Notes under the pieces: generated by a model
What the model was told of the DNA's origin: nothing
Databases searched by the model: none
The model's input: the letters and a program-made list of their open reading frames with translations, nothing else
Sequence record: OL960577.1
Strand: one strand, 5' to 3'
Length of the DNA stretch: 64,000 nucleotides
Origin: Escherichia phage vB_EcoM_SA35RD
Program-made: the position numbers and the translations under genes
Shown here: positions 2,520-46,840 of the stretch, in pieces
Position numbering within the stretch: position 1 is the stretch's first letter
Layout: each line of letters starts with the position of its first letter

Positions 2520-3620
2520 TTACGCTGTGAAGATTTTATCCCACATCGCAACAACTGCATCTCGGTTATACTTCTTCCATACTGCTTCAGCACGTTTAAC
2601 TCGAGCTTCGTATGTGTCAGTGAATTCTAATACAGCTTTTGTGTAAAGCGCAACTACTTCTTTCTTAGGAGTAGAGGAATCAATTTCTACACGCACAGTA
2701 TCTGGGTCATATTCGAATGTCGCGTGCGGATAATCCTTAAAAACTAACTGAATCACAGGGACACCTTTAGAGATGGCTTCAATAGAACTATTCTCTACCG
2801 TACCCGTGTCAGGACACGTATTGATAAGTGCTTTAGCTGTTTTAAGACGTTCCATGATTTCACTGTGTGGAGCATCAATAATAACAGGATATTTAGCTGG
2901 TGGTGCCCATTTACTAGGACAGTATCCTGCACCATTTTCGCCTAGTGCTTTAATCGCTTCAAGAGCAACATCAGTACGACGCATTTTAGTGTCATAACGT
3001 TGTGCACTAATAATCAGATCAGTCGCCGGAAGAACTTCAGGTTTCTCATTCAAACAAATAACCGGATAATCTTCGGCTTCAAACAACGGATTTGCTCGCC
3101 AATAATCATAATCAATTTTGTCAGTCAGACCTGAAGTCATATAACAATATTTGCGTTCAAATTCACGGAAGGCTTTAGTAGGAGCATAACTCTTACCACC
3201 GTTCTTATGAATTTGAATAGTCTGGTCCCAAATTTGAACAATGCCACGAGATACCGGTTCAAATGGTGTTGCCATAAAATTCTTATGAACTTTAGAGAGA
3301 CCTGCGTCTTTAATTGCCTGAACGGTTAGTTTGGTCGGTTCCATAGTAACAACAAAATCGTATTCATGGATGCCGGCTAGTTCAACAATCTTACGAGCCA
3401 TAGTATAACTCATACCTAGACTGAATTTAGTCAGATGACCAACAGGATGATGATTAACCTTCCAGTCACCAAACGTGTCATTATCAAAGCCGATATAATC
3501 AATATCAGCACCGATGGACACAAGATATTTCAATACATTTAAATGTACTGCTTCAAGACCACCTTGTACACGTTCTGGGTTAAATGGGACTGCGCGAGAT
3601 GGGATAAACATAACTTTCAT
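2520..3620 (-). CDS. GT-B fold glycosyltransferase, candidate DNA hmC arabinosyltransferase
   Basis: 366 aa; N-terminal MKVMFIPS...GGLE and C-terminal GTVENSSIEAISKGVPVI resemble GT1/GT4 motifs; occupies the gene 60/mobA slot of T4. Confidence 0.55.
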   Translation of the reverse strand: MKVMFIPSRAVPFNPERVQGGLEAVHLNVLKYLVSIGADIDYIGFDNDTFGDWKVNHHPVGHLTKFSLGMSYTMARKIVELAGIHEYDFVVTMEPTKLTVQAIKDAGLSKVHKNFMATPFEPVSRGIVQIWDQTIQIHKNGGKSYAPTKAFREFERKYCYMTSGLTDKIDYDYWRANPLFEAEDYPVICLNEKPEVLPATDLIISAQRYDTKMRRTDVALEAIKALGENGAGYCPSKWAPPAKYPVIIDAPHSEIMERLKTAKALINTCPDTGTVENSSIEAISKGVPVIQLVFKDYPHATFEYDPDTVRVEIDSSTPKKEVVALYTKAVLEFTDTYEARVKRAEAVWKKYNRDAVVAMWDKIFTA

Positions 3621-3631
3621 AATTAAGCCTT

Positions 3632-3664
3632 ATTAAAATTAAAATGAAGCTCCCGAAGGAGCTT
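3632..3664 (-). terminator. stem-loop with UUCG tetraloop followed by U-rich tract
   Basis: Plus strand AAGCTCC-CGAA-GGAGCTT preceded by A-run, just after topoisomerase stop. Confidence 0.45.
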
Positions 3665-5480
3665 AGGACATCCATTCTTTACGAAGTTCTGAATCATCAC
3701 CCATCAGCATTTCAAAGAGTTCTTTCCAATTTTCAGGAAGTTTAACTACGTCGTACACAGGGTTCTGAATCATTTCACGATACTCTGACTTTTCAAGGGA
3801 GCCCAATCCCTTGATGTATCGAATACTATGCTTAGGCAGTGTATCTTTAACTTCTTCATACTCAGCTACAGTATAAAACCATTTTTGAGTTTTGCCAATT
3901 TGTGCAATAATTACAGGTGTTTTAACAAAGCGAATACGTCCTTGTTCAAACAATTCAGGCCAATTACTAAAGAAAGCAAGCAAAGCAGGATAAATACTTC
4001 CAAGGCCGTCATGATCGGCATCGGTCATAATTGCAATATTACGATAGTTCGTATTCTCTGCCTTTTCACCAAGAATAAGACCTGTGATAGCACAGATATC
4101 AAAGAGCTCTTTGTTCTTCATCATATCAGCATATGACATACCCCAGCTATTCATCACCTTACCACGTAACGGGAATCCGCCGTGTAGTTCACGGTCACGA
4201 ACATCAATGAGATATCCAATTGCCGAATCACCTTCTGTTAAAAACAATGTCGTATCTGCATCTTTACCACATTGGTTAGCTTTAATATGCTTATGAACCT
4301 TAGCTTTAGTTGCCTTTTTAGCTGCTTTAGTTTCTGCAGCCTTTTCTGCCGCCAATTTACGAGCTAATGCTGCTTCAACAATAGGCATAATCAAGGCTTC
4401 ATTTTTAAGAAGTGCCTGAGCAATTTTCTTAGCATCTAATTGGATATGATTACGAATATCACCATACGTTGACGTTAAACGTTCTTTAGTCTGAGAATCA
4501 AAACGCATGTTGCTCATGTCTCTAATAAACATCAACATTGTGAGACATTCTTTAACACGAGCTTTAGTGACTTCAATACCATTATATTTCTTTTTAATGC
4601 CGGGCAAAAGATGTTCGCAGATATCATCCATTACACATTCAACATGATGACCACCATTTTTAGTATGGATGTTATTCACATAAGTTAAATGACGGAAGCC
4701 GTCTGGTGATGTTGTGAATGCTATAGAGACTTTATCATTTTCTTGAATGATATTATCTTCACCAAATTGTTTAGCAAATCGTTTAAAATTACCATCAACC
4801 TTTTTACCATTAAATGTGAACTTGATATCAGGATAAACGACTGCCAATGTTTGAAGTCGGTCTAAAGTAATATCTAAATAAATTTGAGATAAATTATGCT
4901 CTTCAAATGAAGAGAAATCAGGAGTGAAGATTACTTTAGTGCCTTTACCTTTAGATTTCTTAGAAGACCATGATTTGTTTTCCATTCCGTTTGAACAGTT
5001 AACAGTGATTTCATTTTCGCCATCTGACGTGATGCCTGTAAACAACGTAGAGAAGATATTAGTTAAACTACTTCCGACGCCGTTCATACCACCAGTCTTG
5101 CGTTCAGAATCATCACCAAAGTTACCACCAGCCTTTGGAATAGTCCAGGCTGCTACAGGACCAGGAATTTGTTCACCTGTTTGGTCGGTAACTAAACCTT
5201 GAGGAATACCACGTCCGTTATCTTCCACCGAAACTTGGTTATTTTTAATTTGCACATCAATTTTATTTGCAAACTTAAATGATGTACGAATAGCTTCATC
5301 AACCGAGTTGTCAATAATCTCATCGATTAATTTAACCAGACCAGGAACATATTCAACTTGTTGATATTTACCAAACAAAAAACGCTCGTGGGCTTCTTTA
5401 GCAGAAGAACCAATATACATACCACTGCGTTTCTTAATATGTTCTACATCTGACAATACCTTAATTTCATTTTTAATCAT
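3663..5480 (-). CDS. 39: DNA topoisomerase II large subunit, fused gp60+gp39 (GyrB-like ATPase)
   Basis: 605 aa single ORF, longer than T4 gp39 (516 aa), consistent with gene 60 and 39 fused; synteny. Confidence 0.75.
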   Translation of the reverse strand: MIKNEIKVLSDVEHIKKRSGMYIGSSAKEAHERFLFGKYQQVEYVPGLVKLIDEIIDNSVDEAIRTSFKFANKIDVQIKNNQVSVEDNGRGIPQGLVTDQTGEQIPGPVAAWTIPKAGGNFGDDSERKTGGMNGVGSSLTNIFSTLFTGITSDGENEITVNCSNGMENKSWSSKKSKGKGTKVIFTPDFSSFEEHNLSQIYLDITLDRLQTLAVVYPDIKFTFNGKKVDGNFKRFAKQFGEDNIIQENDKVSIAFTTSPDGFRHLTYVNNIHTKNGGHHVECVMDDICEHLLPGIKKKYNGIEVTKARVKECLTMLMFIRDMSNMRFDSQTKERLTSTYGDIRNHIQLDAKKIAQALLKNEALIMPIVEAALARKLAAEKAAETKAAKKATKAKVHKHIKANQCGKDADTTLFLTEGDSAIGYLIDVRDRELHGGFPLRGKVMNSWGMSYADMMKNKELFDICAITGLILGEKAENTNYRNIAIMTDADHDGLGSIYPALLAFFSNWPELFEQGRIRFVKTPVIIAQIGKTQKWFYTVAEYEEVKDTLPKHSIRYIKGLGSLEKSEYREMIQNPVYDVVKLPENWKELFEMLMGDDSELRKEWMS

Positions 5481-5523
5481 GTTGTCTCCTCGTTATGAAG
5501 GTATTCTATCATCCGAAATCTAA

Positions 5524-5545
5524 AGCAAAAAGGGCCGAAGCCCTT
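5524..5545 (-). terminator. intrinsic terminator-like hairpin (UUCG loop)
   Basis: AAGGGC-CGAA-GCCCTT preceded by A5 on plus strand (U-run on minus RNA). Confidence 0.5.
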
Positions 5546-5969
5546 ATTTAAATTTAATTTTCTGAAGTGCATCAATTGCAGCCAAACGCCCTTGTTCACT
5601 TTTAACTGTAATGACCACATCGCCTGATACGATCACCGAACCATCAATAAATTCTATAGAGCCTTTTTTGAAATCGACAGCTGTATCTGGTTCCTGAACT
5701 TCTTCAAAGAATTTAAATTCTGCACCATAAAGCAGAATATCACCTTGCATACTATGAATAGTTCGGCCATAATCGCCTACGGCTTCTACAGCAATAACCG
5801 AAACACCGTAACCAATCATCTCTTCCACAATAAAATCTTTGGACAATAAAGTAGTATGCAGATTAGTATTAAGACGTTTACCAGTCGTATTAAGAATTCT
5901 CAAGAAATTATCTTCTTGACCTTTGATAATATGATATTTCTTACCAACTTCAAAACCTTTAAAAGCCAT
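5544..5969 (-). CDS. hypothetical protein at goF position
   Basis: 141 aa ORF, same length and position as T4 goF; no motif recognised. Confidence 0.4.
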   Translation of the reverse strand: MAFKGFEVGKKYHIIKGQEDNFLRILNTTGKRLNTNLHTTLLSKDFIVEEMIGYGVSVIAVEAVGDYGRTIHSMQGDILLYGAEFKFFEEVQEPDTAVDFKKGSIEFIDGSVIVSGDVVITVKSEQGRLAAIDALQKIKFK

Positions 5970-5971
5970 AA

Positions 5972-6151
5972 TTATCCCTTCTTAAGTAAGTCGTAAAAAC
6001 CACCGTTCACATGTTTAGGAGCAGAAACCAGACGAGTAGACAGACGATGACATTCAGGGCAAACATCGTTTTCTCGTTCAGAAATCCTTTTAATTTTTTC
6101 ATATTCATGACCACAATCTTCAGATTGACATTTATAGTCGTATAACGGCAT
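5972..6151 (-). CDS. small zinc-ribbon protein (FmdB-like, CxxC...CPEC)
   Basis: Hand translation MPLYDYKCQSEDCGHEYEKIKRISERENDVCPECHRLSTRLVSAPKHVNGGFYDLLKKG (59 aa, below ORF-track cutoff); abuts flanking genes. Confidence 0.4.
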   Translation of the reverse strand: MPLYDYKCQSEDCGHEYEKIKRISERENDVCPECHRLSTRLVSAPKHVNGGFYDLLKKG

Positions 6152-6153
6152 TA

Positions 6154-6582
6154 TTATTCCTTAAAATGTGCTTTCAACATTTGATACAAAGACCATGCCT
6201 GGTCGTTATTTTCGATAGTAATCGACATCACCGGAAATTCAGACAATTCACCAAGTTCACTAGAATCTTGCTCTTCGGACGCTTGATATGGATTTCCAAC
6301 TTCGTCAAAGAACTCTGCTTCATTCGTGGAGAGCCAGATAAAGTTTTCATCAAGGATATCACCACCTGTTGCGTATCCAACCATGCCAGTAGATGTCACA
6401 ATTTTAGTAGGACGACCAAGATGGTCAACATCTAATACTTTAAATGGTTCCATGCCAAGACGTCGTGCATAAATCCCATTATCGGTGTGGTCCTTAATAA
6501 ACTCTTCTTGGGCACGTTTATCTTTAAATTGGTACCACGAGTTAACGCGGAATTTATTAGCCATTAGTAAGTTTCCTTCCAA
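6154..6582 (-). CDS. hypothetical protein (motB region)
   Basis: 142 aa ORF in minus-strand gene array. Confidence 0.4.
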
Positions 6583-9626: not shown

Positions 9627-10940
9627 TCAAATAAAATGGACGTCAAAACGACCACGAGTTGTGCCGACATACAATAACTGTTTAGCTAGTTCTGAATCGG
9701 CATAATGGATACACGGTGTATAAACAAAGGCCGTGTCAACAGACATACCCTGGGCCTTATGGAAGGTTGATACTGGTAGTGCCTTCACCTTAGTGAACAT
9801 GCGTTTAGCATCCCAGAATTCGCTCCATGGAGCTTTACCACCTTTATTCCAGAATTTGTATGTTTCTGCAGTCTTAGCCAAAAACAAATTGAATTTATAA
9901 AGCTCTTCTTCAGAAGAAATAACCTTTATATCTTCGCGGACGTATTCTTCATCATCGCCATATGTTTCTACTGTAAGATTCCAGTATCGTATCATATATT
10001 CGCCTGAAACACCACGTGCTTTAACAAATGTAGACGTTTCTACAGCATCTCGAATACGAACGAATTGCCCGTTATTGAAAAGCATTTCAGACATATTTTT
10101 GCCATCTAGCTTATACGTCTTGGTAAACGGCTCTTGTAGAACAATGACCTCGTCTTTAATAAATGGCTTTTCTGTTTCGAGAAGTTTTCGGCGAATAATT
10201 GAATTTAACTTGTCCACCGACTTATTTGTGAATGCCATCATTCGATTTTCGAAAAGGTCTTCAGGAGTTTTAACGACATTAAAATAGTTCATCATATACG
10301 ATTTAAGGTCTGTATATCCATGAACACCGTGTCCATCAACTACTTTATCGTAAATCCATTTGCCATTACGAATATCAGTCGCAACATCAATAATTGGTGC
10401 ATTGCTACGTTTAACTTCTGTAAGGTTGCATTGCACGAAGTCTTTGTGAGTGAAGAAAGGACTTAGATACGCAGTGGATTCGCCTGGGTCTACCGGTCGA
10501 ATTTGACATCGGTCGCCGATTCCAATTACTGTGCACCATTTAGGGATACTAGCTAACATTATTTTAAACAGAGAACGGTCACACATTGATGCTTCATCAA
10601 ATAACAATACACGGCACAAGGCTAAGTCGGGAACCTTTTTCTGTTCAAATAATACGTTTTCTTCGTATGTAGTTGGGTTGATTTTAAGAATGCTATGAAT
10701 AGTCGATGCTTCTTGACCTGCAAGTTTGCTTAGAACCTTTTTAGCAGCATGTGTAGGGGCTGCTAAAATAATACCTGATTCTCCAGAAGAAATAAGGGCT
10801 TCAACGATGAATCTAGTAAGGGTTGTTTTACCTGTACCAGCAGGTCCATTAATAGTTACGTGATGTTTCTTTTCTTTAATAGCTTTCATAACAACGTTGA
10901 AGGCGTTTTTCTGGCCTTCAGTCAAGTCATCAAATGTCAT
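9627..10940 (-). CDS. dda: Dda DNA helicase (SF1)
   Basis: 437 aa, Walker A GPAGTGKTT; T4 synteny. Confidence 0.85.
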   Translation of the reverse strand: MTFDDLTEGQKNAFNVVMKAIKEKKHHVTINGPAGTGKTTLTRFIVEALISSGESGIILAAPTHAAKKVLSKLAGQEASTIHSILKINPTTYEENVLFEQKKVPDLALCRVLLFDEASMCDRSLFKIMLASIPKWCTVIGIGDRCQIRPVDPGESTAYLSPFFTHKDFVQCNLTEVKRSNAPIIDVATDIRNGKWIYDKVVDGHGVHGYTDLKSYMMNYFNVVKTPEDLFENRMMAFTNKSVDKLNSIIRRKLLETEKPFIKDEVIVLQEPFTKTYKLDGKNMSEMLFNNGQFVRIRDAVETSTFVKARGVSGEYMIRYWNLTVETYGDDEEYVREDIKVISSEEELYKFNLFLAKTAETYKFWNKGGKAPWSEFWDAKRMFTKVKALPVSTFHKAQGMSVDTAFVYTPCIHYADSELAKQLLYVGTTRGRFDVHFI

Positions 10941-11248
10941 CGTAAAGTCCCTGCAATTGGAATACTAACAATACGGCCGGTATCTAGAATTCGTTGATAC
11001 AATCTTTGCGTCTCTGCATCTAGTTTAACGTGTTTCATTTCAAGCTTATTAAACCAGAACTTACGCGGAGTTTCGACCATTCTTAGAACTCCCATTTTTA
11101 AATCTGTTTTATACTGTGTTTTCAAAGTATCGAAAACTTTATCTGCAATATCCTTTCTAAAAAATACTGCAGGACGATGCTCATCAAGTGGAACTGGGAC
11201 AGTAAATCCTTCCATATCTCGATAAACTATTGCATATACATAAACCAT
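10937..11248 (-). CDS. hypothetical protein (dda.1 position)
   Basis: 103 aa ORF overlapping dda start by 4 nt. Confidence 0.45.
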   Translation of the reverse strand: MVYVYAIVYRDMEGFTVPVPLDEHRPAVFFRKDIADKVFDTLKTQYKTDLKMGVLRMVETPRKFWFNKLEMKHVKLDAETQRLYQRILDTGRIVSIPIAGTLR

Positions 11249-23630: not shown

Positions 23631-24179
23631 TTAACGAGCCCATTTGATAATTTCTGTAATCAAATTATTACGTTCGCTTGCATTAAATCCTATAACTTTG
23701 TTAGCACCATCATGATTAAGTAATTGATACGTTTGGATTTCGTTATGAATTGCAAACTCTTCAAAATATGAAATGACTGTATTAAAACCGAATGAAGACA
23801 AAGTAATAAGGTCGTCTTCAAAACTTTCAGTCATTTCGTTACGTGTTAAAATAATTGTGAACACATCATGGTTTTGGCAAAGACGAACATAATCCTGTTC
23901 ATAAACGTCAAGAACCGAGTCCGCATCTTGTCGAATACGTCCATAAACCCAGTTACTAATATATCCACGGTCTAACAGATAAATCTTAGTAGGGTCTAAA
24001 TAATTCAACATCGTTTCGAAACAGCCAACTTCATTTCGAGACTTAACATCGAAACGTCCATCAACTGTTCGTTTAGGGAAATCAATCTTTACATATCTTT
24101 CACTAATTTCCATTATGTCATTAATGAAAGTTGTTTTACCAGCATTATCCGGGCCATCTACTAAAATAATTTTAGCCAT
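23631..24179 (-). CDS. P-loop kinase, thymidylate/dNMP kinase-like
   Basis: 182 aa; Walker A VDGPDNAGKTT and LLDRGYISNWVYG (DR-Y-like motif). Confidence 0.5.
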   Translation of the reverse strand: MAKIILVDGPDNAGKTTFINDIMEISERYVKIDFPKRTVDGRFDVKSRNEVGCFETMLNYLDPTKIYLLDRGYISNWVYGRIRQDADSVLDVYEQDYVRLCQNHDVFTIILTRNEMTESFEDDLITLSSFGFNTVISYFEEFAIHNEIQTYQLLNHDGANKVIGFNASERNNLITEIIKWAR

Positions 24180-24180
24180 T

Positions 24181-25080
24181 TTATTCCTCGATTACGACAT
24201 CTTCGTATTTAGGTATATTATACGGTGAAGAAATTAAAGCATTAAAGTAGATGAACTCACCAAGACCTGGATGGAATACTTCTTCAGGATTTTCGAAATA
24301 TTGAATCTTCGGACGTCCTTTAAGAATTTGATAGTACTCAGTTTTAGTTGGATTAAAAATTCGAATCAGCGCTTCTTCAGGATACTTATTTCTGTCGAAA
24401 CTATTATTTGGATCAGTTATATAAAGCGGTTGACCTAATTGAATTGCGCATTCAACCACTTGTTCAAAACGATAGCATGGGTCACTAATTCGAAATGGAT
24501 GAAAAATACCATCTAGATGAATAGGAGCCAAATCACCTACAAGACGCTGCATGACGGAAGGACGTATAACTTTCTGCGTTACGATAATCTTATTACCATC
24601 TGCACCTGCGTTAACCAGCACTTCTTTTTGACGTTCATTCAACACAGTAGTTTGAAGTGAACGATTAACAGACAACATGTCGGTTTTTAAGAATTCATCA
24701 ATATAAAAACGTGGTTTATTAGGGTCTGCAGTGATATTGAAATTGAATTCTACATCAAAAGCGCCGTCATATCCAGTGATATCTGTGATTAGAAAATCAC
24801 AATCATAATAAGCAATTAATGAATCAACCACAAATTCATTTTCAGACCAAAAATATTTACGAGTGTTATACGCGTTATCTTTATACCATAATGGAACAAA
24901 CTTAAATTCTGGGAAAAGACGTTCACATTCTTTAATATCAGATGCATTACGTGGATATGTAATCACATCACCCGGATTAGCACGGTGCAAATGAAGTTGG
25001 AAGTTGCCATCCTTAAGGATAGCATACTGTCCAGTTTCATAAGACCGCATACTCAAGATAGGTACGCGGAAAATAGCCAT
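24181..25080 (-). CDS. hypothetical protein in modification locus
   Basis: 299 aa ORF, no recognised motif. Confidence 0.45.
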   Translation of the reverse strand: MAIFRVPILSMRSYETGQYAILKDGNFQLHLHRANPGDVITYPRNASDIKECERLFPEFKFVPLWYKDNAYNTRKYFWSENEFVVDSLIAYYDCDFLITDITGYDGAFDVEFNFNITADPNKPRFYIDEFLKTDMLSVNRSLQTTVLNERQKEVLVNAGADGNKIIVTQKVIRPSVMQRLVGDLAPIHLDGIFHPFRISDPCYRFEQVVECAIQLGQPLYITDPNNSFDRNKYPEEALIRIFNPTKTEYYQILKGRPKIQYFENPEEVFHPGLGEFIYFNALISSPYNIPKYEDVVIEE

Positions 25081-25796
25081 TAGTCAAGGAATCCTTTAAC
25101 ATAATCAAAATCACGTTCAAACACATGGGCACTTACCATGGTATGAGTATAATCACCAACTTCTACACCACATTCGTTAGCGATATAATGAAGTAATTTT
25201 CCTTGGAGATAAAAATCCAACTGCATAACAACAGCACAGTTCTGGGAACGCATATGACAGTGGGTATAAAGCTTACCGTCACGAATATAATAAGTCACTG
25301 AGTCAGTACATGGATATTCAAGCGTTTCGTCCGAATCAAGCAAAGCCTGATCAGAACTTTCTAGAATTTGGAACACAACTCTTCGAGAGTTAGGTTTCTC
25401 TTTAAGTTCTTTTAGAAGAGCTGGTAATTGGGCCGCAATGCGAGGACCATAGAAAGTGTTGAAGTTCGCCGGCAAAGCGTCTGATTTAGGTTTAGAAATA
25501 AATTTAGCGACATTAGGATATGCCTTAAACGCTTCTTCTGCATCAGTACCACCAGAAATCATAAACTTCCAGAAGTCTTCGGCATATTCATAAGAGATGC
25601 GGTTAATACGTGGGTCGGTCATTTTGAATGATGATGGATTGTCAACAACTACTGTCATGGACCCGATTTCATTACAACGTCCAATACGAGAATCAGTTAC
25701 GAATTCAGGATTTTCTAAAATTTCACGATTGACTGCTTTAAATGCGGCTTGAAAATCTGCGGCTTTGATATATTTCATTGTGTTATGTTTTCCCAT
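25080..25796 (-). CDS. 42: dCMP hydroxymethylase gp42 (thymidylate synthase fold)
   Basis: 238 aa; EYPCTD segment and size; T4 synteny (42 upstream of 43). Confidence 0.7.
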   Translation of the reverse strand: MGKHNTMKYIKAADFQAAFKAVNREILENPEFVTDSRIGRCNEIGSMTVVVDNPSSFKMTDPRINRISYEYAEDFWKFMISGGTDAEEAFKAYPNVAKFISKPKSDALPANFNTFYGPRIAAQLPALLKELKEKPNSRRVVFQILESSDQALLDSDETLEYPCTDSVTYYIRDGKLYTHCHMRSQNCAVVMQLDFYLQGKLLHYIANECGVEVGDYTHTMVSAHVFERDFDYVKGFLD

Positions 25797-25838: not shown

Positions 25839-26078
25839 TTATTTGAATTTCTTGGCAATGTTGATATAACGTAAAGCTTCAGAATCTATACTTCCAAGAA
25901 CACTATGAAGGAATGCATCAGTGTAGTATTCCAATTGAACAGGTTCTTTAATCACTTTAGCCGCTTTGGTTTCAAACAGGCCCATAAGGGCCTTTTTAAG
26001 AATTTGTTCGTTAGTGTTCAGTTTTATAGTCAAAATCTCTTCATTAAGTTGGTGGTTAAAAGTTTTTCTAGAAATCAT
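25839..26078 (-). CDS. hypothetical protein
   Basis: 79 aa ORF. Confidence 0.35.
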   Translation of the reverse strand: MISRKTFNHQLNEEILTIKLNTNEQILKKALMGLFETKAAKVIKEPVQLEYYTDAFLHSVLGSIDSEALRYINIAKKFK

Positions 26079-27244
26079 TCCGGGTACCTCAAAGCGTCAT
26101 CAGAGTTAGTTATATCAATAATAGATATAGAGTTTTCTGATAACCCATTTTTAGATAACTGACGTTTATAATATCTTTCACAATATGTACACGTCGTCCC
26201 GCAGATTTCATTAGCACAATCGAAATCTGGATGTCTGAACCACCTTTTTTCTAAAAAACCGTCTAACAATGAGGTTTCAATATTTACTGTATGTGAAAAC
26301 TCAGTCTCATTTTCAAGAGTGAAAATAGTCTCTAAAGGCTTCCACAGTTCTAACAAATTACCTTCAAACTTTTCAGAAGCGTATGCTTCAAGAACTTTCA
26401 AAATGTAGTCTGTGCTACCTGTACGTCCTGAAACTTTGAATTGAGTGATACCAATATCATTATAAAGTTTCAAATCTTGAGGACGAACAAAACGAGTTCT
26501 CAACCAGTTAAATGGGTCTGTATCACGAGCTTTAATGCAGTGTTGCATTGGATACCCGTTTAAGGATTTAGCATCATCAGCTGTAACATCAGTACTATGG
26601 AAAATATAGCAAGAGTCACGATAGCTACAATGTGTTGTATACCCTTTACCAGCATTAGAACAGAACTCATTTACAAGAACTTCAAATATTATATTGTTCT
26701 TATTGCAAAACTCTGCTGCACGCTTCAGGAAAGAAACTGAACGGTTCTTATGAATTCCACAGCAGACCTTTTTGATATTGTATTGGTCATGTAAGTATTT
26801 TATTTGAGTTACAGCATCGACATGTAGAATTGTTGAAACTTCAATCTCAATGTCTTTATTGACTTCACGAACAATTTCCATAACAACAGGGTTAGCGATA
26901 GTAATACGCCATACGCCTATTGACCAAAGATACTGAACATAATCCTGAATAGCTTTCTTCTTCCACTCAACTAGTTCTCTTTTTGAACCAGGATTTATCG
27001 TGTTGAGTGTATAGTTAAAGCAAATACCTAATTCGTTACAACGTTTAACGTAATCTTCTAACATCTTTTTGTCAACGTCAGGAAGCCTAAAATCAGGTCT
27101 GGCTGCTACAAAAGCCATTTCTCTTGTAGAGCCGTATACTTCATTTATCAAGCTATTAGGATAAGTTTTATTGAGCTCTACGATTTTATCAAGAAGAGCT
27201 AAATCAAAATTCGTTCCGATTTTAAAAGTATTCATTTTTTGCAT
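26075..27244 (-). CDS. Cys-rich protein, possible Fe-S enzyme (U32-like?)
   Basis: 389 aa; Cys clusters EFCSNAGKGYTTHCSYRDSC and CANEICGTTCTYC (CxxxCxxC); family unresolved. Confidence 0.45.
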   Translation of the reverse strand: MQKMNTFKIGTNFDLALLDKIVELNKTYPNSLINEVYGSTREMAFVAARPDFRLPDVDKKMLEDYVKRCNELGICFNYTLNTINPGSKRELVEWKKKAIQDYVQYLWSIGVWRITIANPVVMEIVREVNKDIEIEVSTILHVDAVTQIKYLHDQYNIKKVCCGIHKNRSVSFLKRAAEFCNKNNIIFEVLVNEFCSNAGKGYTTHCSYRDSCYIFHSTDVTADDAKSLNGYPMQHCIKARDTDPFNWLRTRFVRPQDLKLYNDIGITQFKVSGRTGSTDYILKVLEAYASEKFEGNLLELWKPLETIFTLENETEFSHTVNIETSLLDGFLEKRWFRHPDFDCANEICGTTCTYCERYYKRQLSKNGLSENSISIIDITNSDDALRYPE

Positions 27245-27294: not shown

Positions 27295-27696
27295 TTATAG
27301 ATTCGGTTTATACGATTTAAATGTTTCGAATTCGCCTTTATTCATAAGAGCTTTGAATTCGTCAGGACGCATAGCTTTGTCGTCGATAATCCAATCATAT
27401 ACTGGTTTATGTGTTAGCAAATTATGGTACTTCAAACCAATGTTTTCCAAGTTCTGAATCAGACTTGGGAGAATGTCAATTGCTATACGACCAGGACCTA
27501 CCGACTTCATACCACGAGCAGTGTAAAGCGTTATGGTATGCCCTGCATCATACAGGGCATTAATGGCGGTCACCATTTCGACGTCTGGTTTGAAGTTCAC
27601 ATAATCACGATTGTTATTCCACTCTGTTATACAATCATCGACATCAAAACAAAGATTAAGCATGTTTTCTACACGGTGCATTAGATTCGTTCCCAT
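27295..27696 (-). CDS. HAD-superfamily phosphatase
   Basis: 133 aa; DxD motif in FDVDDCIT near N-terminus. Confidence 0.55.
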   Translation of the reverse strand: MGTNLMHRVENMLNLCFDVDDCITEWNNNRDYVNFKPDVEMVTAINALYDAGHTITLYTARGMKSVGPGRIAIDILPSLIQNLENIGLKYHNLLTHKPVYDWIIDDKAMRPDEFKALMNKGEFETFKSYKPNL

Positions 27697-29366
27697 TGAT
27701 GAGTGATATCGCCACCGATTGGACGATAGGAAACACCAGTTTCTTTATCAGTTAGTACCCATTTACCAGGATTTTTTGTAATCAGAGTAGCCGTTACAGG
27801 TTCTGCTACGTCATAACTAATAGAGCCATCTTGAAGTACACGGCCCGTGTTACGTAATTGCTTAGTCAGAAGTTCCATACCTTTATAATATGCGGCTACC
27901 GCTTTAAGTGGATTATTCTTGAAATAACCACCTAATGCAATCCAGATAATTGCTACTGCCAAATGATGATACTCGTTAAACGAACTCATCTTTCCATATT
28001 TGTAAACTAATGGATTGATGTTAATAGTCACATTACAAGTTGTTTCATCAATAATAAACTGGCCCCAGGTCGGATTAGCGTTGAATTCATCATAACCTGA
28101 AACAGCATAAAGCACTTTAGCTTCATCATACAATTTTGGTCCGTAAATCTTGGTTTCACCAAAATATCCACGAGGGTCGATAAACTTGACTTCGCCGTTA
28201 TCAGTAATCATAGTATTACTGAAGTTCGGATCACCGTGAATAACAGAGTACTGTCCCTGAGAACGGTTATGATAACGAATAAGATGTTCTAAAGCTTGTT
28301 TCAACATTGGCTTCAGACGTCCAATCTTAGTGTAGTTCACGTGTGTGATTTTACCAAATGAATCAATCAATGGCTGAATGCTTTCACAACGATCAATAAC
28401 TTTCGTATAGAACTCTTTAGTGAAATCACGGCGAACAGTTTCAGGACTTACAAAATAAGTGTCTGTGCTGAATTTCAGTGCATCTAAAATTGCATCAACA
28501 ATTTGTGGACGAGCAAGACTTGATTTGGATTTAATATATTCAAATGCCGGCTTACCTTTAATACGTTCCATTTCAAAGTTATTTTCATTAACAGAAACTA
28601 ACTGAGGGACTGAATCTGATTTCACTTTCAAATACCATGAAATCTCATCTTTCTGAAGAGCTCGACCTTGTTCGGTTAACGCGAATTTAGTTACAGTTTC
28701 TTCGCCAATTTCAACTGCATTAAAACTACGATTAAGTTCACGAACTTCATGAGCTTTTTCAAGTTTAGGCATATCGCCAAGGTCGATGATATTCATAAGC
28801 TCTGATTTATTGAATGCGCCGCTGTAAAGGAATTCTACGAAATCACGTCCTTTGCAGTATTCATGAATTTCCTCATCAGTAGAACCCATATAGAATTCCC
28901 AGTCTTTGAACTGATAAATTCCTACAACATTACCACCTGTTGAACCTACGTTAGTGATATTTTCACCGTCGAAATTATATCGACATTCGTCACCCTTAAC
29001 ATAGATTGCGTTAACATTCCAAGACCATGAACCAAAATCAGGAATAATATCACACCAGTTAACAATTACATTATGGCCGTCTAAATCTTTGTGTAATTTA
29101 GCAAGAGCATAAGCAGAACCATACGCTTCGTCAACTGTACGAATAGTCACATTGAACCCTTCTTGCTCACAATAAGCTCGAACAGTTTCAGCAAATTTTG
29201 AATGAACTACTACAATAATTTCATCTGCGCCAAGGTCAGAATAAATTGTATACAAATTGCTCAGAATAGTGTCTTGTTTATAGTTCACAAGAACTTTTGG
29301 AATATGATGCGTTATTGGATACAAACGAGTTGCCAGTCCAGCACCAAGAATAACAGCTTTTTTCAT
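27681..29366 (-). CDS. bifunctional sugar-1-phosphate nucleotidyltransferase / sugar kinase
   Basis: 561 aa; N-terminal GAGLATRLYPITHHIPK (G-x-G-T-R...PK); C-terminal HGDPNFSNTM...IDPRG (APH/choline-kinase-like). Confidence 0.6.
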   Translation of the reverse strand: MKKAVILGAGLATRLYPITHHIPKVLVNYKQDTILSNLYTIYSDLGADEIIVVVHSKFAETVRAYCEQEGFNVTIRTVDEAYGSAYALAKLHKDLDGHNVIVNWCDIIPDFGSWSWNVNAIYVKGDECRYNFDGENITNVGSTGGNVVGIYQFKDWEFYMGSTDEEIHEYCKGRDFVEFLYSGAFNKSELMNIIDLGDMPKLEKAHEVRELNRSFNAVEIGEETVTKFALTEQGRALQKDEISWYLKVKSDSVPQLVSVNENNFEMERIKGKPAFEYIKSKSSLARPQIVDAILDALKFSTDTYFVSPETVRRDFTKEFYTKVIDRCESIQPLIDSFGKITHVNYTKIGRLKPMLKQALEHLIRYHNRSQGQYSVIHGDPNFSNTMITDNGEVKFIDPRGYFGETKIYGPKLYDEAKVLYAVSGYDEFNANPTWGQFIIDETTCNVTININPLVYKYGKMSSFNEYHHLAVAIIWIALGGYFKNNPLKAVAAYYKGMELLTKQLRNTGRVLQDGSISYDVAEPVTATLITKNPGKWVLTDKETGVSYRPIGGDITHQWERI

Positions 29367-29407: not shown

Positions 29408-29551
29408 CTAGTTAAAGCATTCATACTTTGCCTGTAGACCAATCATAATCCATCCAATTACAAGTGTTGGAATCATTACTGGAGCCGTTAAGCTCCAGTA
29501 GATAGTCATGACAAGCATTAATAGTAAAAGTCCTATTGTTATTGCTTTCAT
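29408..29551 (-). CDS. small hydrophobic peptide translationally coupled to isomerase gene
   Basis: Hand translation MKAITIGLLLLMLVMTIYWSLTAPVMIPTLVIGWIMIGLQAKYECFN; ATGA overlap with upstream stop. Confidence 0.3.
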   Translation of the reverse strand: MKAITIGLLLLMLVMTIYWSLTAPVMIPTLVIGWIMIGLQAKYECFN

Positions 29552-30183
29552 TGTTCGCCTCGTAACATGGCACCTAGTGCACCACCAGGGTGGAACTTAA
29601 GGAAGTCATTAGAGGTAAATCCGCGTTCAGACGAAAGGTTGATAGCAAACGTATCGATAAGCGCTAACAACAATGTGGTGGACATTGTCGGAGCTAAAGA
29701 GTTCTCGTCAACTTCTACCGCGATACCGGTACAGAACGTATAATCAAAAAGAGCTTCGTATTCTTGTGGAATGTCAGGGTTACAATGTAACAGAATCTGT
29801 TTAACCTGAGGACGAATCATACGAAGATGTTTAGCAACACCTATCATTTCTTCAGTCTTACCAGAACGACTAATATGAATCAACACATCATTAGGCGCAA
29901 TGAATCCTGCATCACCGTGAGAATAATGCCCGGTGTTCAAGTACATACTCGGGATACCGAGTGAAGCAAATGTCTCAGAAGCTTTAGTTGCAATATTAGC
30001 ATTCTTACCAACACCTGTAATAATTACTCGGCTTTCATAATTACTAAGTCCTGGGCGTCGAAGAGTTTCTAGAATAGCATTATAACGAGCAGGGTTTTGA
30101 CTAATTACTTTGGCCATAGCGGCCAAAGAAGAAGCTTGTTTTATGATTGCGTCAATAGCGATAGTAATAGGAGTAGTTTTCAT
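29548..30183 (-). CDS. SIS-domain sugar-phosphate isomerase, arabinose-5-phosphate isomerase-like
   Basis: 211 aa; GVGKNANIATKASETFASLGIPS...SHGD resembles KdsD/GutQ SIS domain. Confidence 0.6.
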   Translation of the reverse strand: MKTTPITIAIDAIIKQASSLAAMAKVISQNPARYNAILETLRRPGLSNYESRVIITGVGKNANIATKASETFASLGIPSMYLNTGHYSHGDAGFIAPNDVLIHISRSGKTEEMIGVAKHLRMIRPQVKQILLHCNPDIPQEYEALFDYTFCTGIAVEVDENSLAPTMSTTLLLALIDTFAINLSSERGFTSNDFLKFHPGGALGAMLRGEQ

Positions 30184-44555: not shown

Positions 44556-45026
44556 TTAATCATGTTTCCACACCCCATCGGTATTTGACCAAAGTCGCTG
44601 ATTATCTGATCCTCGCCACAGCTTTTTGGTCGGAAGATTTTTCTCATACTTCCCATCAATAATAACATCAACATATTTAAGCATTTCTAGTTGTTTAATA
44701 TCTTCAAACTTATATCCTGTCCACAACCAAATGCTTTTACTGGGATAAAGATTTTTTACTGTTTGAACAATGCAATGAATAACATCTCGATTATCAGGAT
44801 AGAGAGGGTCTCCTCCAGTTATAGTTAATCCTTCTATATAATCATTATTCAAACATTCAATTAATTGTTCTAGTGTCTCTCCAGTGAATGGAACACCGTT
44901 TCTAGCATTCCATGTTGATTTATTATAACATCCTTCACATTTATGCAAACAACCTGTAACGAAAAGAACGACCCTGCAACCAGGGCCATTCACAAAATCG
45001 CAAGGATAAAATCTATCATAATTCAT
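44556..45026 (-). CDS. nrdG: anaerobic ribonucleotide reductase activating protein (radical SAM)
   Basis: 156 aa; CLHKCEGCYN cluster; directly downstream of nrdD. Confidence 0.8.
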   Translation of the reverse strand: MNYDRFYPCDFVNGPGCRVVLFVTGCLHKCEGCYNKSTWNARNGVPFTGETLEQLIECLNNDYIEGLTITGGDPLYPDNRDVIHCIVQTVKNLYPSKSIWLWTGYKFEDIKQLEMLKYVDVIIDGKYEKNLPTKKLWRGSDNQRLWSNTDGVWKHD

Positions 45027-46840
45027 TGGTGTTTAACCCTATGCATGATTTCTTTATTTTTGCCAAGATTAAATCCGCGTTCGTTCGGATTTCCCAAATA
45101 ACCACAAGTTCTTCTTATTGTGTTCATCTTTTTAGGGTCAGTTTCTCCGCAAACTGAACAAACAAATCCGTTTTCAGTAGGAGTCATTTCATGGGTACTT
45201 CCACATGTAAAACATTTATCTACTGGCATATTAACACCAAAATAATCTAAATGTTGTGCGGCATAATCCCATACAGCCTCAAGACCTTTTAAGTTATTTT
45301 TCATATCAGGAAGTTCAACATAAGAAATGTGTCCGCCAGTCGCAATGAAATGATATGGGGCTTCGCGAGAAATCTTTTCAAACGGAGTGATATTTTCTTC
45401 TACTGAAACATGGAAACTATTAGTGTACCAGCCTTTATCAGTAACATCCTTTACACTTCCATATTTTTCAGTATCAAGTTTACAGAAGCGATAACAAAGG
45501 TTTTCAGCAGGTGTAGAATACAAACTAAAAGCAAAACCGGTTCTTTCAGTCCACTGTTTAAGATGAGCATTCATTTTAGTTAAAATTTCTTGTCCAATAT
45601 CACGACCGACAAGAATATTCAATTCGTGAATACCAATGTATCCTAGGGACACTGAACTTCTACCGTTTTTAAATAACTCAATTATATCGTCATCAGGTTT
45701 AAGACGAACCCCGAATGCACCTTCTTGGTAAAGAATAGGAGCAACAGTCGCTTTAACTCCTTTTAAGGAACTAATTCTACACATCAAAGCTTCAAAACAC
45801 AAATCCATTCGTTCATTGAACAATTCGGCAAATTTCTGTTCATTGAATTGTGTTCCAATATAAGAATCTAACGCAATGCGAGGAAGATTCAGTGTTACAA
45901 CACCAAGATTATTGCGTCCATCAAGAATTTCATTACCAGTCGAATCTTTCCATACACTCAAGAAACTACGGCAACCCATTGGAGAAACTGGAACTGAAGA
46001 ACCAGTAATAGCTTTATTATTCTTAACCGAAATAATGTCAGGATACATTCTTTTGCTTGCACATTCTAACGCAAGTTGTTTAATATCATAGTTCGGATCA
46101 TCTTTATAAAGATTAACACCTTCTTCAACGAACATAACAAGCTTAGGGAAAATAGGAGTTATTCCATCACGACCAAGGCCTTTAATGCGGTTTTTAAGAA
46201 TTGCTTTCTGAATCATTCGTTCAGTCCAGTCGGTTCCTGTACCAAATGTAATTGTTACAAAAGGAGTCTGTCCGTTTGAACTAAAGAGAGTATTTACTTC
46301 ATATTCATAAGCTTGGAATGCATCGTATACGTCTTTTTCTGTTTTAGATTGAGCATAATTCAACGCATCAGCGATTTGCCATTTTTCTGCATCTTCAACA
46401 TGTTTAGCGTATGTACGTTTAACATAAGGAGAAAGAACTTTATCGACATTTGCAAATGTAGTTCCGCCATACTGATGTGAAGCAACTTGTGCAGTAATTT
46501 GTGCCATAATTGCAGTAGCAACACCAATCGATTTAGGCGTTTCAATTTGAGCATTGCCTAATTTAAATCCATTCTCAAGCATCCCCTTTAAATCGACTAA
46601 ACAGCAATTGGTAAACGGAAGAGCAGGAGAATAATCAATATCATGCATGTGGATAATTCCACTTTCATGCGCATTCATAATAAAAGACGGGACCGTATTT
46701 TTGGCAATGTGCTTAGACACAATACCAGCCATAAGGTCCCGTTGAGTTGGAAAAACACGAGAATCTTTATTAGCATTCTCGTTTAAAAGGTCTTTATTAG
46801 TTTTATGAATTAATCCTTCAATTTCTTTTTCAATTTTCAT
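45023..46840 (-). CDS. nrdD: anaerobic ribonucleoside-triphosphate reductase
   Basis: 605 aa, uninterrupted; C-terminal zinc ribbon CFTCGSTHE...CSVCG and glycyl radical region RRTCGYLG. Confidence 0.85.
   Translation of the reverse strand: MKIEKEIEGLIHKTNKDLLNENANKDSRVFPTQRDLMAGIVSKHIAKNTVPSFIMNAHESGIIHMHDIDYSPALPFTNCCLVDLKGMLENGFKLGNAQIETPKSIGVATAIMAQITAQVASHQYGGTTFANVDKVLSPYVKRTYAKHVEDAEKWQIADALNYAQSKTEKDVYDAFQAYEYEVNTLFSSNGQTPFVTITFGTGTDWTERMIQKAILKNRIKGLGRDGITPIFPKLVMFVEEGVNLYKDDPNYDIKQLALECASKRMYPDIISVKNNKAITGSSVPVSPMGCRSFLSVWKDSTGNEILDGRNNLGVVTLNLPRIALDSYIGTQFNEQKFAELFNERMDLCFEALMCRISSLKGVKATVAPILYQEGAFGVRLKPDDDIIELFKNGRSSVSLGYIGIHELNILVGRDIGQEILTKMNAHLKQWTERTGFAFSLYSTPAENLCYRFCKLDTEKYGSVKDVTDKGWYTNSFHVSVEENITPFEKISREAPYHFIATGGHISYVELPDMKNNLKGLEAVWDYAAQHLDYFGVNMPVDKCFTCGSTHEMTPTENGFVCSVCGETDPKKMNTIRRTCGYLGNPNERGFNLGKNKEIMHRVKHQ

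Follow-up and report, generated by a model that had tools for sequence, protein, structure and literature searches.

The U32-family gene and the cluster around it

The DNA considered here (hereafter the window) is a stretch of 64,000 nucleotides from Escherichia phage vB_EcoM_SA35RD (sequence record OL960577.1), a Mosigvirus, one of the RB69-like T-even phages, which over a stretch of 4.5 kb shares 98-99% identity with many Escherichia phages; the subject of the present analysis is a gene of the U32 family which lies in it, embedded in a cluster of DNA-modification genes. The open reading frame (ORF; 26075-27244, ATG start, 389 aa) had been singled out in an original prediction made from the nucleotide sequence alone; its existence was confirmed and its orientation settled, in that it lies on the minus strand, the plus-strand frame of the same interval being full of stops throughout. 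The encoded protein is the ortholog of RB69 gp50, to which it is 99.7% identical.

The protein matches the Pfam model PF01136 (Peptidase_U32) with 42.2 bits, against a gathering cut-off of 22.4 (E = 7.4e-11), over residues 97-289 (26378-26956, minus strand), a match that is also precomputed for nearly all of its homologs; moreover, PHROG 5757, labelled 'peptidase', covers it end to end. The view that it belongs to an unknown family had thus to be abandoned, and the loose resemblance to U32 proteins which had been noticed by eye in its central segment turned out to be genuine, on the evidence of the Pfam score, of the fold and of a profile alignment with the E. coli protein RlhA. In particular, an AlphaFold2 (AF2) model built from 31 homologs (predicted local distance difference test score, pLDDT, 90.3; predicted template modelling score, pTM, 0.90) has the U32 barrel fold as seen in Protein Data Bank (PDB) entry 5D88, which is the top match in a fold search, the remaining matches being generic triosephosphate isomerase (TIM) barrels. 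The protein in 5D88, the archaeal Mk0906, is the sole U32 member whose structure has been solved; it comprises 247 aa, that is, the barrel core only, and is 11-14% identical to the phage protein, and searches of PDB sequences, whether started from the protein or from the family profile, returned nothing relevant, including no sequence-level match to 5D88. Among the E. coli paralogs the best profile match is RlhA (hhalign, E = 1.8e-5, 204 columns, residues 57-288), and hhalign comparisons with the single sequences of UbiU and TrhP gave matches too weak for use; faint matches to UbiU are seen in 14 of the 31 family members and to TrhP in five, none of them near the cut-offs. As judged from these comparisons, the phage protein represents a separate subfamily within U32; this subfamily is large, counting 454 clusters (50% identity) at E <= 1e-30.

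The labels attached to these proteins in public records are 'peptidase', 'putative protease', 'collagenase' and 'hypothetical protein', and the record of the BASEL phage AlbertHofmann calls the product a 'putative enzyme involved in UDP-arabinose biosynthesis'. In the study of the RB69 modification pathway, gp50 appears as an entry of Table 1 only, where it is termed a 'sugar or heterocycle reductase' on the basis of the match to 5D88 (PMC13326640).

The U32 gene lies inside the modification cluster and is co-oriented with it, between the genes of a phosphatase and of a 5-hydroxy-dCMP synthase, all on the minus strand. Its stop codon is overlapped (ATGA) by the ATG of a 79-aa ORF (25839-26078, minus strand; RB69 gp49), which suggests translational coupling, and the product of this ORF might act together with the U32 enzyme as a small partner protein. 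No Pfam or NCBIfam model matches it; homologs come after the U32 gene in Mosigvirus, in Yersinia Tegunavirus and in Pectobacterium PM2. That it might be a diverged chorismate mutase was considered and rejected, given the lack of a Pfam or NCBIfam match and the presence in both Yersinia TG1 and Pectobacterium PM2 of this ORF together with a true chorismate mutase of the CM_2 type.

The ThyA-fold gene that follows (25080-25796, minus strand) had been read as a dCMP hydroxymethylase, an assignment that has to be corrected: because its product is 99.2% identical to RB69 gp48, it is a 5-hydroxy-dCMP synthase, an enzyme that depends on flavin mononucleotide (FMN) and O2, takes its oxygen from 18O2 when this is supplied, and is active in E. 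coli without gp50 (PMC13326640). In many GenBank records the gp48-type gene is still called thymidylate synthase or dCMP hydroxymethylase; in our alignment of the window homolog with E. coli ThyA the substitution L143E and the residue C146 were reproduced, and the published D169N and N177D were not placed correctly. Since the neighbour is a 5-hydroxy-dCMP synthase, the modification is to be read as arabinosyl-5-hydroxycytosine, not as arabinosyl-hydroxymethylcytosine; indeed, RB69 DNA contains mono- and di-arabinosyl-5-hydroxycytosine, not arabinosyl-hydroxymethylcytosine, and no detectable deoxycytidine (PMC13326640).

The remaining genes of the cluster, likewise on the minus strand, are those of DNA arabinosyltransferase 1 (24181-25080; RB69 gp46:47 ortholog, role according to PMC13326640), distant homologs of which flank the U32 gene in unrelated phages, and of a thymidylate-kinase-like nucleotide kinase (23631-24179; RB69 gp45 ortholog) on one side; on the other side lie the genes of a phosphatase of the HAD type (27295-27696; RB69 gp51, AfhF-like), assigned to UDP-arabinofuranose synthesis (PMC13326640), of a bifunctional nucleotidyltransferase/kinase (27681-29366; RB69 gp52:53, AfhE-like, Pfam NTP_transferase; PMC13326640) and of an arabinose-5-phosphate isomerase (29548-30183; RB69 gp55 ortholog, Pfam SIS). 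Farther along the same strand, the window encodes the anaerobic ribonucleotide reductase NrdD (45023-46840; PF13597, 569 bits) and NrdG, its activase of the Fe-S/radical S-adenosylmethionine (radical-SAM) type (44556-45026); this pair is a dedicated O2-free route to dNTPs, and the phage is equipped for replication without O2.

Conserved cysteines and candidate metal sites

With 13 cysteines, that is, 3.3% of its residues as against 1.24% in the 23 other large ORFs of the window (binomial P = 0.0014), the U32 protein is surpassed in cysteine content by a single ORF of the window, that of the Fe-S activase NrdG. The three cysteine motifs pointed out in the original prediction are all present, namely VCCGIHKN (C161 and C162), EFCSNAGKGYTTHCSYRDSC (C195, C206 and C212) and CANEICGTTCTYC (C343, C348, C352 and C355); the suggestion that they form a site is supported by conservation for the last two and not for the first, as is seen in a set of 125 relatives which are 22-49% identical to the protein (median 31%). 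C195, C206 and C236 are conserved in 125 of 125, and the position of C212 (codon 26609-26611) is occupied by Cys in 74 and by His in 50; this alternation of Cys and His is typical of a metal ligand, and the split may correspond to two forms of the metal site that differ in redox behaviour. The four C-terminal cysteines (CX4CX3CX2C) are 93-95% conserved. The pair in VCCGIHKN is not a conserved site, C161 being retained in 57% of the relatives and C162 not being conserved, nor are C180, C69 and C75. K270 and R274 are also found in 125 of 125 relatives and G273 in 108, so as to give a K-x-x-G-R motif which aligns with the KIEGR of RlhA, TrhP and UbiU. The classical U32 signature of PROSITE reads E-x-F-x2-G-[SA]-[LIVM]-C-x4-G-x-C-x-[LIVM]-S; E188 and C212 align with its Glu and its second Cys, and a 10-residue insertion (GKGYTTHCSY) breaks the pattern.

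This pattern of conserved cysteines suggests two metal sites. The core candidate Fe-S site, delineated by conservation and by alignment with the paralogs, comprises C195, C206, C212 and C236, with E188 just upstream (26537-26662, minus strand), and the candidate second site, Fe-S or Zn, comprises C343, C348, C352 and C355 (26180-26218, minus strand), which fall outside the region alignable with the E. coli U32 proteins. When the phage protein is aligned jointly with RlhA, TrhP, UbiU and UbiV, three positions do not vary, namely E188, C212 and C236; the counterparts of E188 and C212 are essential for activity both in RlhA (E161 and C176; PMC5727448) and in TrhP (E162 and C177; PMC6599085), while C212 and C236 align with the 'GRC' and the 'GAC' of UbiU, that is, by our own residue count, with C176 and C193, two of its four [4Fe-4S] ligands (PMC6747719). 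The metal or Fe-S site supposed in the original prediction is thus strongly suggested by the alignment of the invariant Cys and Cys/His positions with the ligands defined by experiment in RlhA, TrhP and UbiU (PMC5727448, PMC6747719); Fe-S binding by the phage protein is what we infer from these alignments, not something observed.

The characterised U32 enzymes resemble the phage protein to different extents. RlhA (YdcP), the synthase of ho5C2501 in E. coli 23S rRNA, shares the U32 domain and carries out the cytosine C5 hydroxylation that is here proposed for the phage protein as well; it requires prephenate, depends on Fe-S biogenesis, and possesses additional essential C-terminal cysteines of its own (PMC5727448). 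The two differ in that RlhA is a protein of 653 aa with a DUF3656 domain, acting on one nucleotide of a ribosome precursor, whereas the phage protein has 389 aa and a proposed deoxynucleotide substrate; they are ~17% identical, and the C-terminal CX4CX3CX2C of the phage protein does not align with RlhA. In the formation of ho5U34 in E. coli tRNA, two unrelated enzymes give one product: TrhP, a U32 protein, requires prephenate and works anaerobically, and TrhO requires O2 (PMC6599085). The same logic would apply here to gp50 and the ThyA-like, FMN/O2-dependent gp48 as a pair, with the differences that the substrate of TrhP and TrhO is an RNA uridine and not dCMP, that the O2-requiring partner is a rhodanese and not a ThyA homolog, and that the phage protein scores far below the TrhP cut-off. 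UbiU-UbiV, finally, offers the case of a U32 Fe-S enzyme with a small-molecule substrate, for which prephenate is the demonstrated oxygen donor (PMC10990095) and which is the anaerobic counterpart of flavin monooxygenases; it differs in being a heterodimer that works with the accessory UbiT on a lipid, and in its cysteine spacing (CX6CX16CX38C).

Distribution and genomic neighbours

In the T-even relatives, the U32 gene and the small gene downstream of it form a discrete insertion between phosphatase and synthase. The U32 gene was found in 220 records, every one at least 80% identical and with no matches below 80%, from phages of Escherichia, Shigella, Klebsiella, Enterobacter, Serratia, Yersinia, Proteus, Providencia, Edwardsiella, Erwinia, Pectobacterium and Shewanella; for the synthase the count is 372 records, 57 of them from Acinetobacter phages and 20 from Rhizobium phages. 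The genera listed for the 220 U32 records do not include Acinetobacter, and Acinetobacter phage fHyAci03, like Pseudomonas phage PspYZU05, lacks the gene precisely where it would normally stand. The loci of aerobe-host phages that were examined (Acinetobacter and Pseudomonas) have the ThyA-type enzyme only; T-even phages of facultative anaerobes have mostly both enzymes, usually with a chorismate mutase between them. Not every phage that makes the modification has the U32 gene, which is missing from the clusters examined in Acinetobacter and Pseudomonas phages and in Dhakavirus; within the cluster it is accessory and conditional, not core. In agreement with this, RB69 and DLP3, the latter without a U32-like gene in its cluster as listed, make the same mono- and di-arabinosyl nucleosides in air (PMC13326640), so that the sugar branch, the transfer of the sugar and aerobic hydroxylation can all proceed without the U32 protein. 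The locus of the E. coli Dhakavirus VR5 (L009, 5854-10589) contains the 5-hydroxy-dCMP synthase, the transferase, the phosphatase and the bifunctional enzyme, without a U32 gene or a detectable arabinose-5-phosphate isomerase; if the U32 protein has the function proposed below, VR5 is predicted to be unable to hydroxylate anaerobically.

The neighbours of the U32 gene include enzymes that could supply prephenate. In 15 of 18 T-even U32 loci (of which L019 and L027 are the same phage), a standalone chorismate mutase of the CM_2 type, above the Pfam cut-off, lies between the U32 gene and the synthase; this gene was found by tblastn in 48 phage records, all of them in U32-carrying genera. A standalone 3-deoxy-D-arabino-heptulosonate 7-phosphate (DAHP) synthase follows the U32 gene in L003 and L034, DAHP synthase and chorismate mutase are fused in L045, L047, L048, L050, L059 and L072 (L047 being apparently the same sequence as L048), and CM_2 alone is present in L068 and L074. 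The proximity of an arabinose-5-phosphate isomerase made it conceivable that the DAHP_synth_1 neighbour is a 3-deoxy-D-manno-octulosonate 8-phosphate (KDO8P) synthase; this was rejected on the scores (237 bits for DAHP against 63 for KDO8P), and is further opposed by the fusion of the same domain to chorismate mutase in other loci. As mentioned above, prephenate is the oxygen donor of UbiU/V, and it is required by TrhP (PMC6599085) as well as by RlhA.

More distant members of the subfamily were considered in 40 viral loci, with U32 proteins 40-56% identical to that of the window, and in a further 11 taken from bacterial genomes or bins. Close to the U32 gene, and in many cases directly adjoining it, a homolog of the DNA arabinosyltransferase of the window is encoded in 28 of the 40 viral loci and in 5 of the 11 from genomes, the loci without it being mostly short or cut at a contig edge. 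The isomerase and the bifunctional kinase are present in many of these divergent loci; in L014 and L042 their place is taken by a UDP-galactopyranose mutase (GLF) and a TAGT-like transferase, which suggests that a different sugar, possibly galactofuranose, is put on the same hydroxylated base. The function thus follows the base acceptor and the transferase from locus to locus, whichever the sugar. In L014 (6028-13179), as in L042, the U32 gene stands between the arabinosyltransferase homolog and the TAGT-like glycosyltransferase, dUTPase/DCD genes lie near and the arabinose genes are absent.

A ThyA-fold ORF, which is present in 18 of the 18 T-even loci with U32, was found by hmmsearch (--max) within ~10 kb of the U32 gene in 1 of the 51 divergent loci and in none of the other 50; in these loci, the U32 gene appears where the ThyA-type hydroxylase is absent. 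The single case, L036, a 230-kb viral contig which carries a ThyA-fold ORF (75 bits) in addition to U32 (at 5491-6357 and 9998-11086), may be an independent instance of the dual arrangement. Genes acting at the dNMP level, that is, thymidylate-kinase-like genes, dCMP deaminase and dUTPase/DCD, are neighbours of U32 in many loci. In L002 and L004, with no transferase nearby, the U32 gene comes immediately after that of a dCMP deaminase, an arrangement that may reflect a route to 5-hydroxy-dUMP or a hydroxypyrimidine that is not glycosylated. These two (L002, 7447-9939; L004, 7504-9826) are huge phage contigs of the DnaE type, one of them of 466 kb, with a conserved gene of ~250 aa after U32. 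Several DnaE-type contigs share a radical-SAM/SPASM gene that precedes the transferase homolog and lies two genes upstream of U32 (L015, 4980-6011; L016, 4972-6000; L002, 1-249). The genome matches fall, 11 out of 11, in taxa of anaerobe type: Phocaeicola faecalis (an isolate), Tannerella, Romboutsia, Oscillospiraceae, Erysipelotrichales, Gastranaerophilaceae and others.

A proposed O2-independent route to 5-hydroxy-dCMP

On the whole, the U32 protein is probably a prephenate-dependent, O2-independent pyrimidine C5 hydroxylase which makes 5-hydroxy-dCMP. The hydroxylase reading is suggested by the fact that the characterised U32 enzymes (RlhA, TrhP, UbiU/V) carry out O2-independent, prephenate-dependent hydroxylations, and the link to such hydroxylases, drawn in the original prediction, has become the best-supported function; of the two kinds of substrate then envisaged, the nucleotide, and in particular its base, is now favoured and the sugar disfavoured. 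We infer, along with the activity itself, that dCMP, and not DNA or dUMP, is the substrate and that the reaction depends on prephenate and not on O2. The enzyme would hydroxylate dCMP at C5 with prephenate as oxygen donor, using a catalytic cluster of the [4Fe-4S] type on C195, C206, C212 and C236, the four C-terminal cysteines serving as an electron relay or a structural site; the 5-hydroxy-dCMP thus formed would be phosphorylated, incorporated into DNA, and arabinosylated at its 5-OH by the neighbouring glycosyltransferase. There would then be two isofunctional routes to 5-hydroxy-dCMP, an aerobic one through gp48 (FMN/O2) and an anaerobic one through gp50. Dependence on prephenate has indirect support in the chorismate mutase and DAHP synthase genes that neighbour U32 in T-even phages, in divergent phage contigs and in contigs associated with anaerobes; independence of O2 has it in the lack of U32 from the aerobe-host phage loci examined, in its occurrence in genomes of anaerobe type and in the NrdD/NrdG pair of the window. 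The ThyA-superfamily synthases (RB69 gp48, DLP3 gp80 and that of HY126), encoded in the same cluster two genes from U32 and yielding the product here proposed for the U32 protein, differ from the latter in having the thymidylate synthase fold, in using FMN and O2 (PMC13326640), and in being found in phages of strict aerobes without U32.

Why such a route should be needed can be stated simply. T-even phages deplete dCTP from the nucleotide pool, and given this removal an O2-dependent hydroxylase alone would leave no usable cytosine nucleotide under anoxia; the need for an O2-free route arises because NrdD and NrdG permit anoxic replication while the sole known hydroxylase takes its oxygen from O2. 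That a C5-hydroxypyrimidine can be reached redundantly, by one route that depends on prephenate and another that depends on O2, has a direct precedent in TrhP and TrhO of E. coli. More generally, we incline, if cautiously, to the view that phages have two non-homologous routes to 5-hydroxypyrimidines, one by a ThyA homolog (FMN/O2) and one by a U32 protein (Fe-S/prephenate), the choice between them being set by the oxygen lifestyle of the host. The literature searched (Afh gene names; U32 together with chorismate mutase and phage) contained no earlier statement of the function proposed here; the Discussion of PMC13326640 raises RlhA and the tRNA pyrimidine-hydroxylation pathways without tying them to gp50, and the authors of the Thanatos paper state that they have no hypothesis as to where the hydroxyl group comes from, the U32 homolog not having been tested there.

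Several observations weigh against this interpretation. At the level of the protein, the curated orthologous groups are not reached (NCBIfam UbiU, NF047963, and TrhP, NF011996; for UbiU 18 bits against a cut-off of 440); the canonical motif CX6CX15CX3/4C is not reproduced, the spacing here being C-x10-C-x5-C-x23-C; and the alignments disagree on the first canonical Cys, which would be C195, one column off, according to MAFFT and C206 according to hhalign. Reconstitution in vitro as a hydroxylase has yet to be achieved for any U32 enzyme (PMC10990095), and the literature searched contains no biochemical or genetic test of the phage protein. The Mosigviruses, the source of the window included, have no chorismate mutase and carry the 79-aa ORF instead, so that they would depend on the host PheA/TyrA for prephenate. 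As for the oxygen ecology, the synthase is found in 175 Escherichia phage records and U32 in 135, some 40 being apparently without it, and VR5, the one E. coli Dhakavirus examined, lacks U32, which makes the link with facultative anaerobes not a strict one; furthermore, the partition by host and oxygen is confounded with phage phylogeny, the assignment of a metagenome-assembled genome (MAG) bin is weak evidence of host, and the divergent contigs were covered for ~10 kb on each side of U32, so that a more distant ThyA-type gene is possible.

Among the alternatives, an unlikely though chemically identical one is that the protein hydroxylates cytosine in the phage DNA after replication, and not in the dCMP pool. 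Both of the characterised pyrimidine-hydroxylating U32 enzymes do act on polynucleotides (PMC5727448, PMC6599085), and the closest E. coli paralog by profile, RlhA, is one of them; against this, the T-even phages replace cytosine fully through the nucleotide pool, RB69 having no detectable deoxycytidine (PMC13326640), the U32 gene adjoins dNMP-level enzymes in many loci, and the phage protein lacks the additional domains that RlhA and TrhP have at their C-termini. The same affinity to RNA enzymes, together with the faint TrhP matches in 5 of the 31 members, could point to hydroxylation of phage or host tRNA (ho5U34) or rRNA (ho5C) by an auxiliary gene that tunes translation; this we regard as a remote prospect, given that the gene sits within a DNA-modification operon and overlaps its neighbour, that it is linked to a DNA glycosyltransferase across unrelated phage lineages, that the accessory domains of the RNA enzymes are absent, and that E. 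coli already has TrhP and RlhA. A true U32 peptidase or collagenase, as implied by the labels of public records and of PHROG 5757, is barely credible: the label is inherited from the name of the family, for which neither a catalytic mechanism nor catalytic residues of proteolysis have been defined (PMC5727448), and the genomic context is one of nucleotide and DNA modification throughout.

The other two alternatives remain within the cluster itself. A role in the sugar branch, that is, in UDP-arabinose biosynthesis, is what the labels of the AlbertHofmann record and of Table 1 in PMC13326640 imply, and the position of the gene between the phosphatase and the base-modifying genes would be compatible with it; it is nevertheless quite improbable, the path from ribulose 5-phosphate to UDP-arabinofuranose being already covered by the isomerase and the AfhE-like and AfhF-like enzymes (PMC13326640), the same arabinosyl nucleosides being made by Acinetobacter phages without U32, and the U32 gene accompanying the glycosyltransferase even where the sugar genes are others (GLF/TAGT in L014 and L042). 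To our knowledge, moreover, no U32 enzyme acts on sugars. Because the flavin of the 5-hydroxy-dCMP synthase is loosely bound and must be reduced (PMC13326640), the U32 protein, with its two candidate metal sites and its gene so near to that of the synthase, might instead be an Fe-S redox partner (a flavin reductase or an electron relay) of the ThyA-like hydroxylase without being a hydroxylase itself. We think this very improbable in view of the 50 of 51 divergent loci which have U32 and no ThyA-fold gene nearby, of the function of gp48 in E. coli without gp50, and of the Acinetobacter and Pseudomonas phages examined, which manage without U32; in addition, the chorismate mutase and DAHP synthase neighbours would be left unexplained.

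Should the U32 protein be the proposed dCMP hydroxylase, it would be the first U32 hydroxylase from a virus and the first with a DNA precursor as its substrate, and prephenate-dependent U32 hydroxylation would extend from RNA and quinones to DNA precursors and viruses. A gap would be closed in a pathway described in 2025-2026, in which the only known route to 5-hydroxy-dCMP needs O2 and yet the phages infect gut bacteria and encode a ribonucleotide reductase of the anaerobic kind. The chorismate mutases and DAHP synthases of these phages would be auxiliary metabolic genes feeding the U32 enzyme, which would explain why they are carried. In phages of strict anaerobes, the U32 protein would be the only hydroxylase, and DNA with glycosylated 5-hydroxypyrimidines would be widespread in anoxic microbiomes such as that of the gut; the pairing of U32 with a glycosyltransferase gene could then be a genomic marker of hypermodified DNA in phages of anaerobes, of relevance to evasion of restriction and CRISPR, to sequencing artefacts and to the choice of phages for gut therapy. 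Moreover, dCMP would offer the U32 field the soluble small-molecule substrate that it lacks for reconstitution in vitro. The gene itself had already been catalogued, its function being unassigned in the literature searched; what would be new, if the function is right, is the substrate class, the viral setting and the possession of prephenate-supply genes of its own.

Elsewhere in the window, a 366-aa ORF (2520-3620, minus strand) without a Pfam match adjoins the gene of a topoisomerase subunit (3663-5480).

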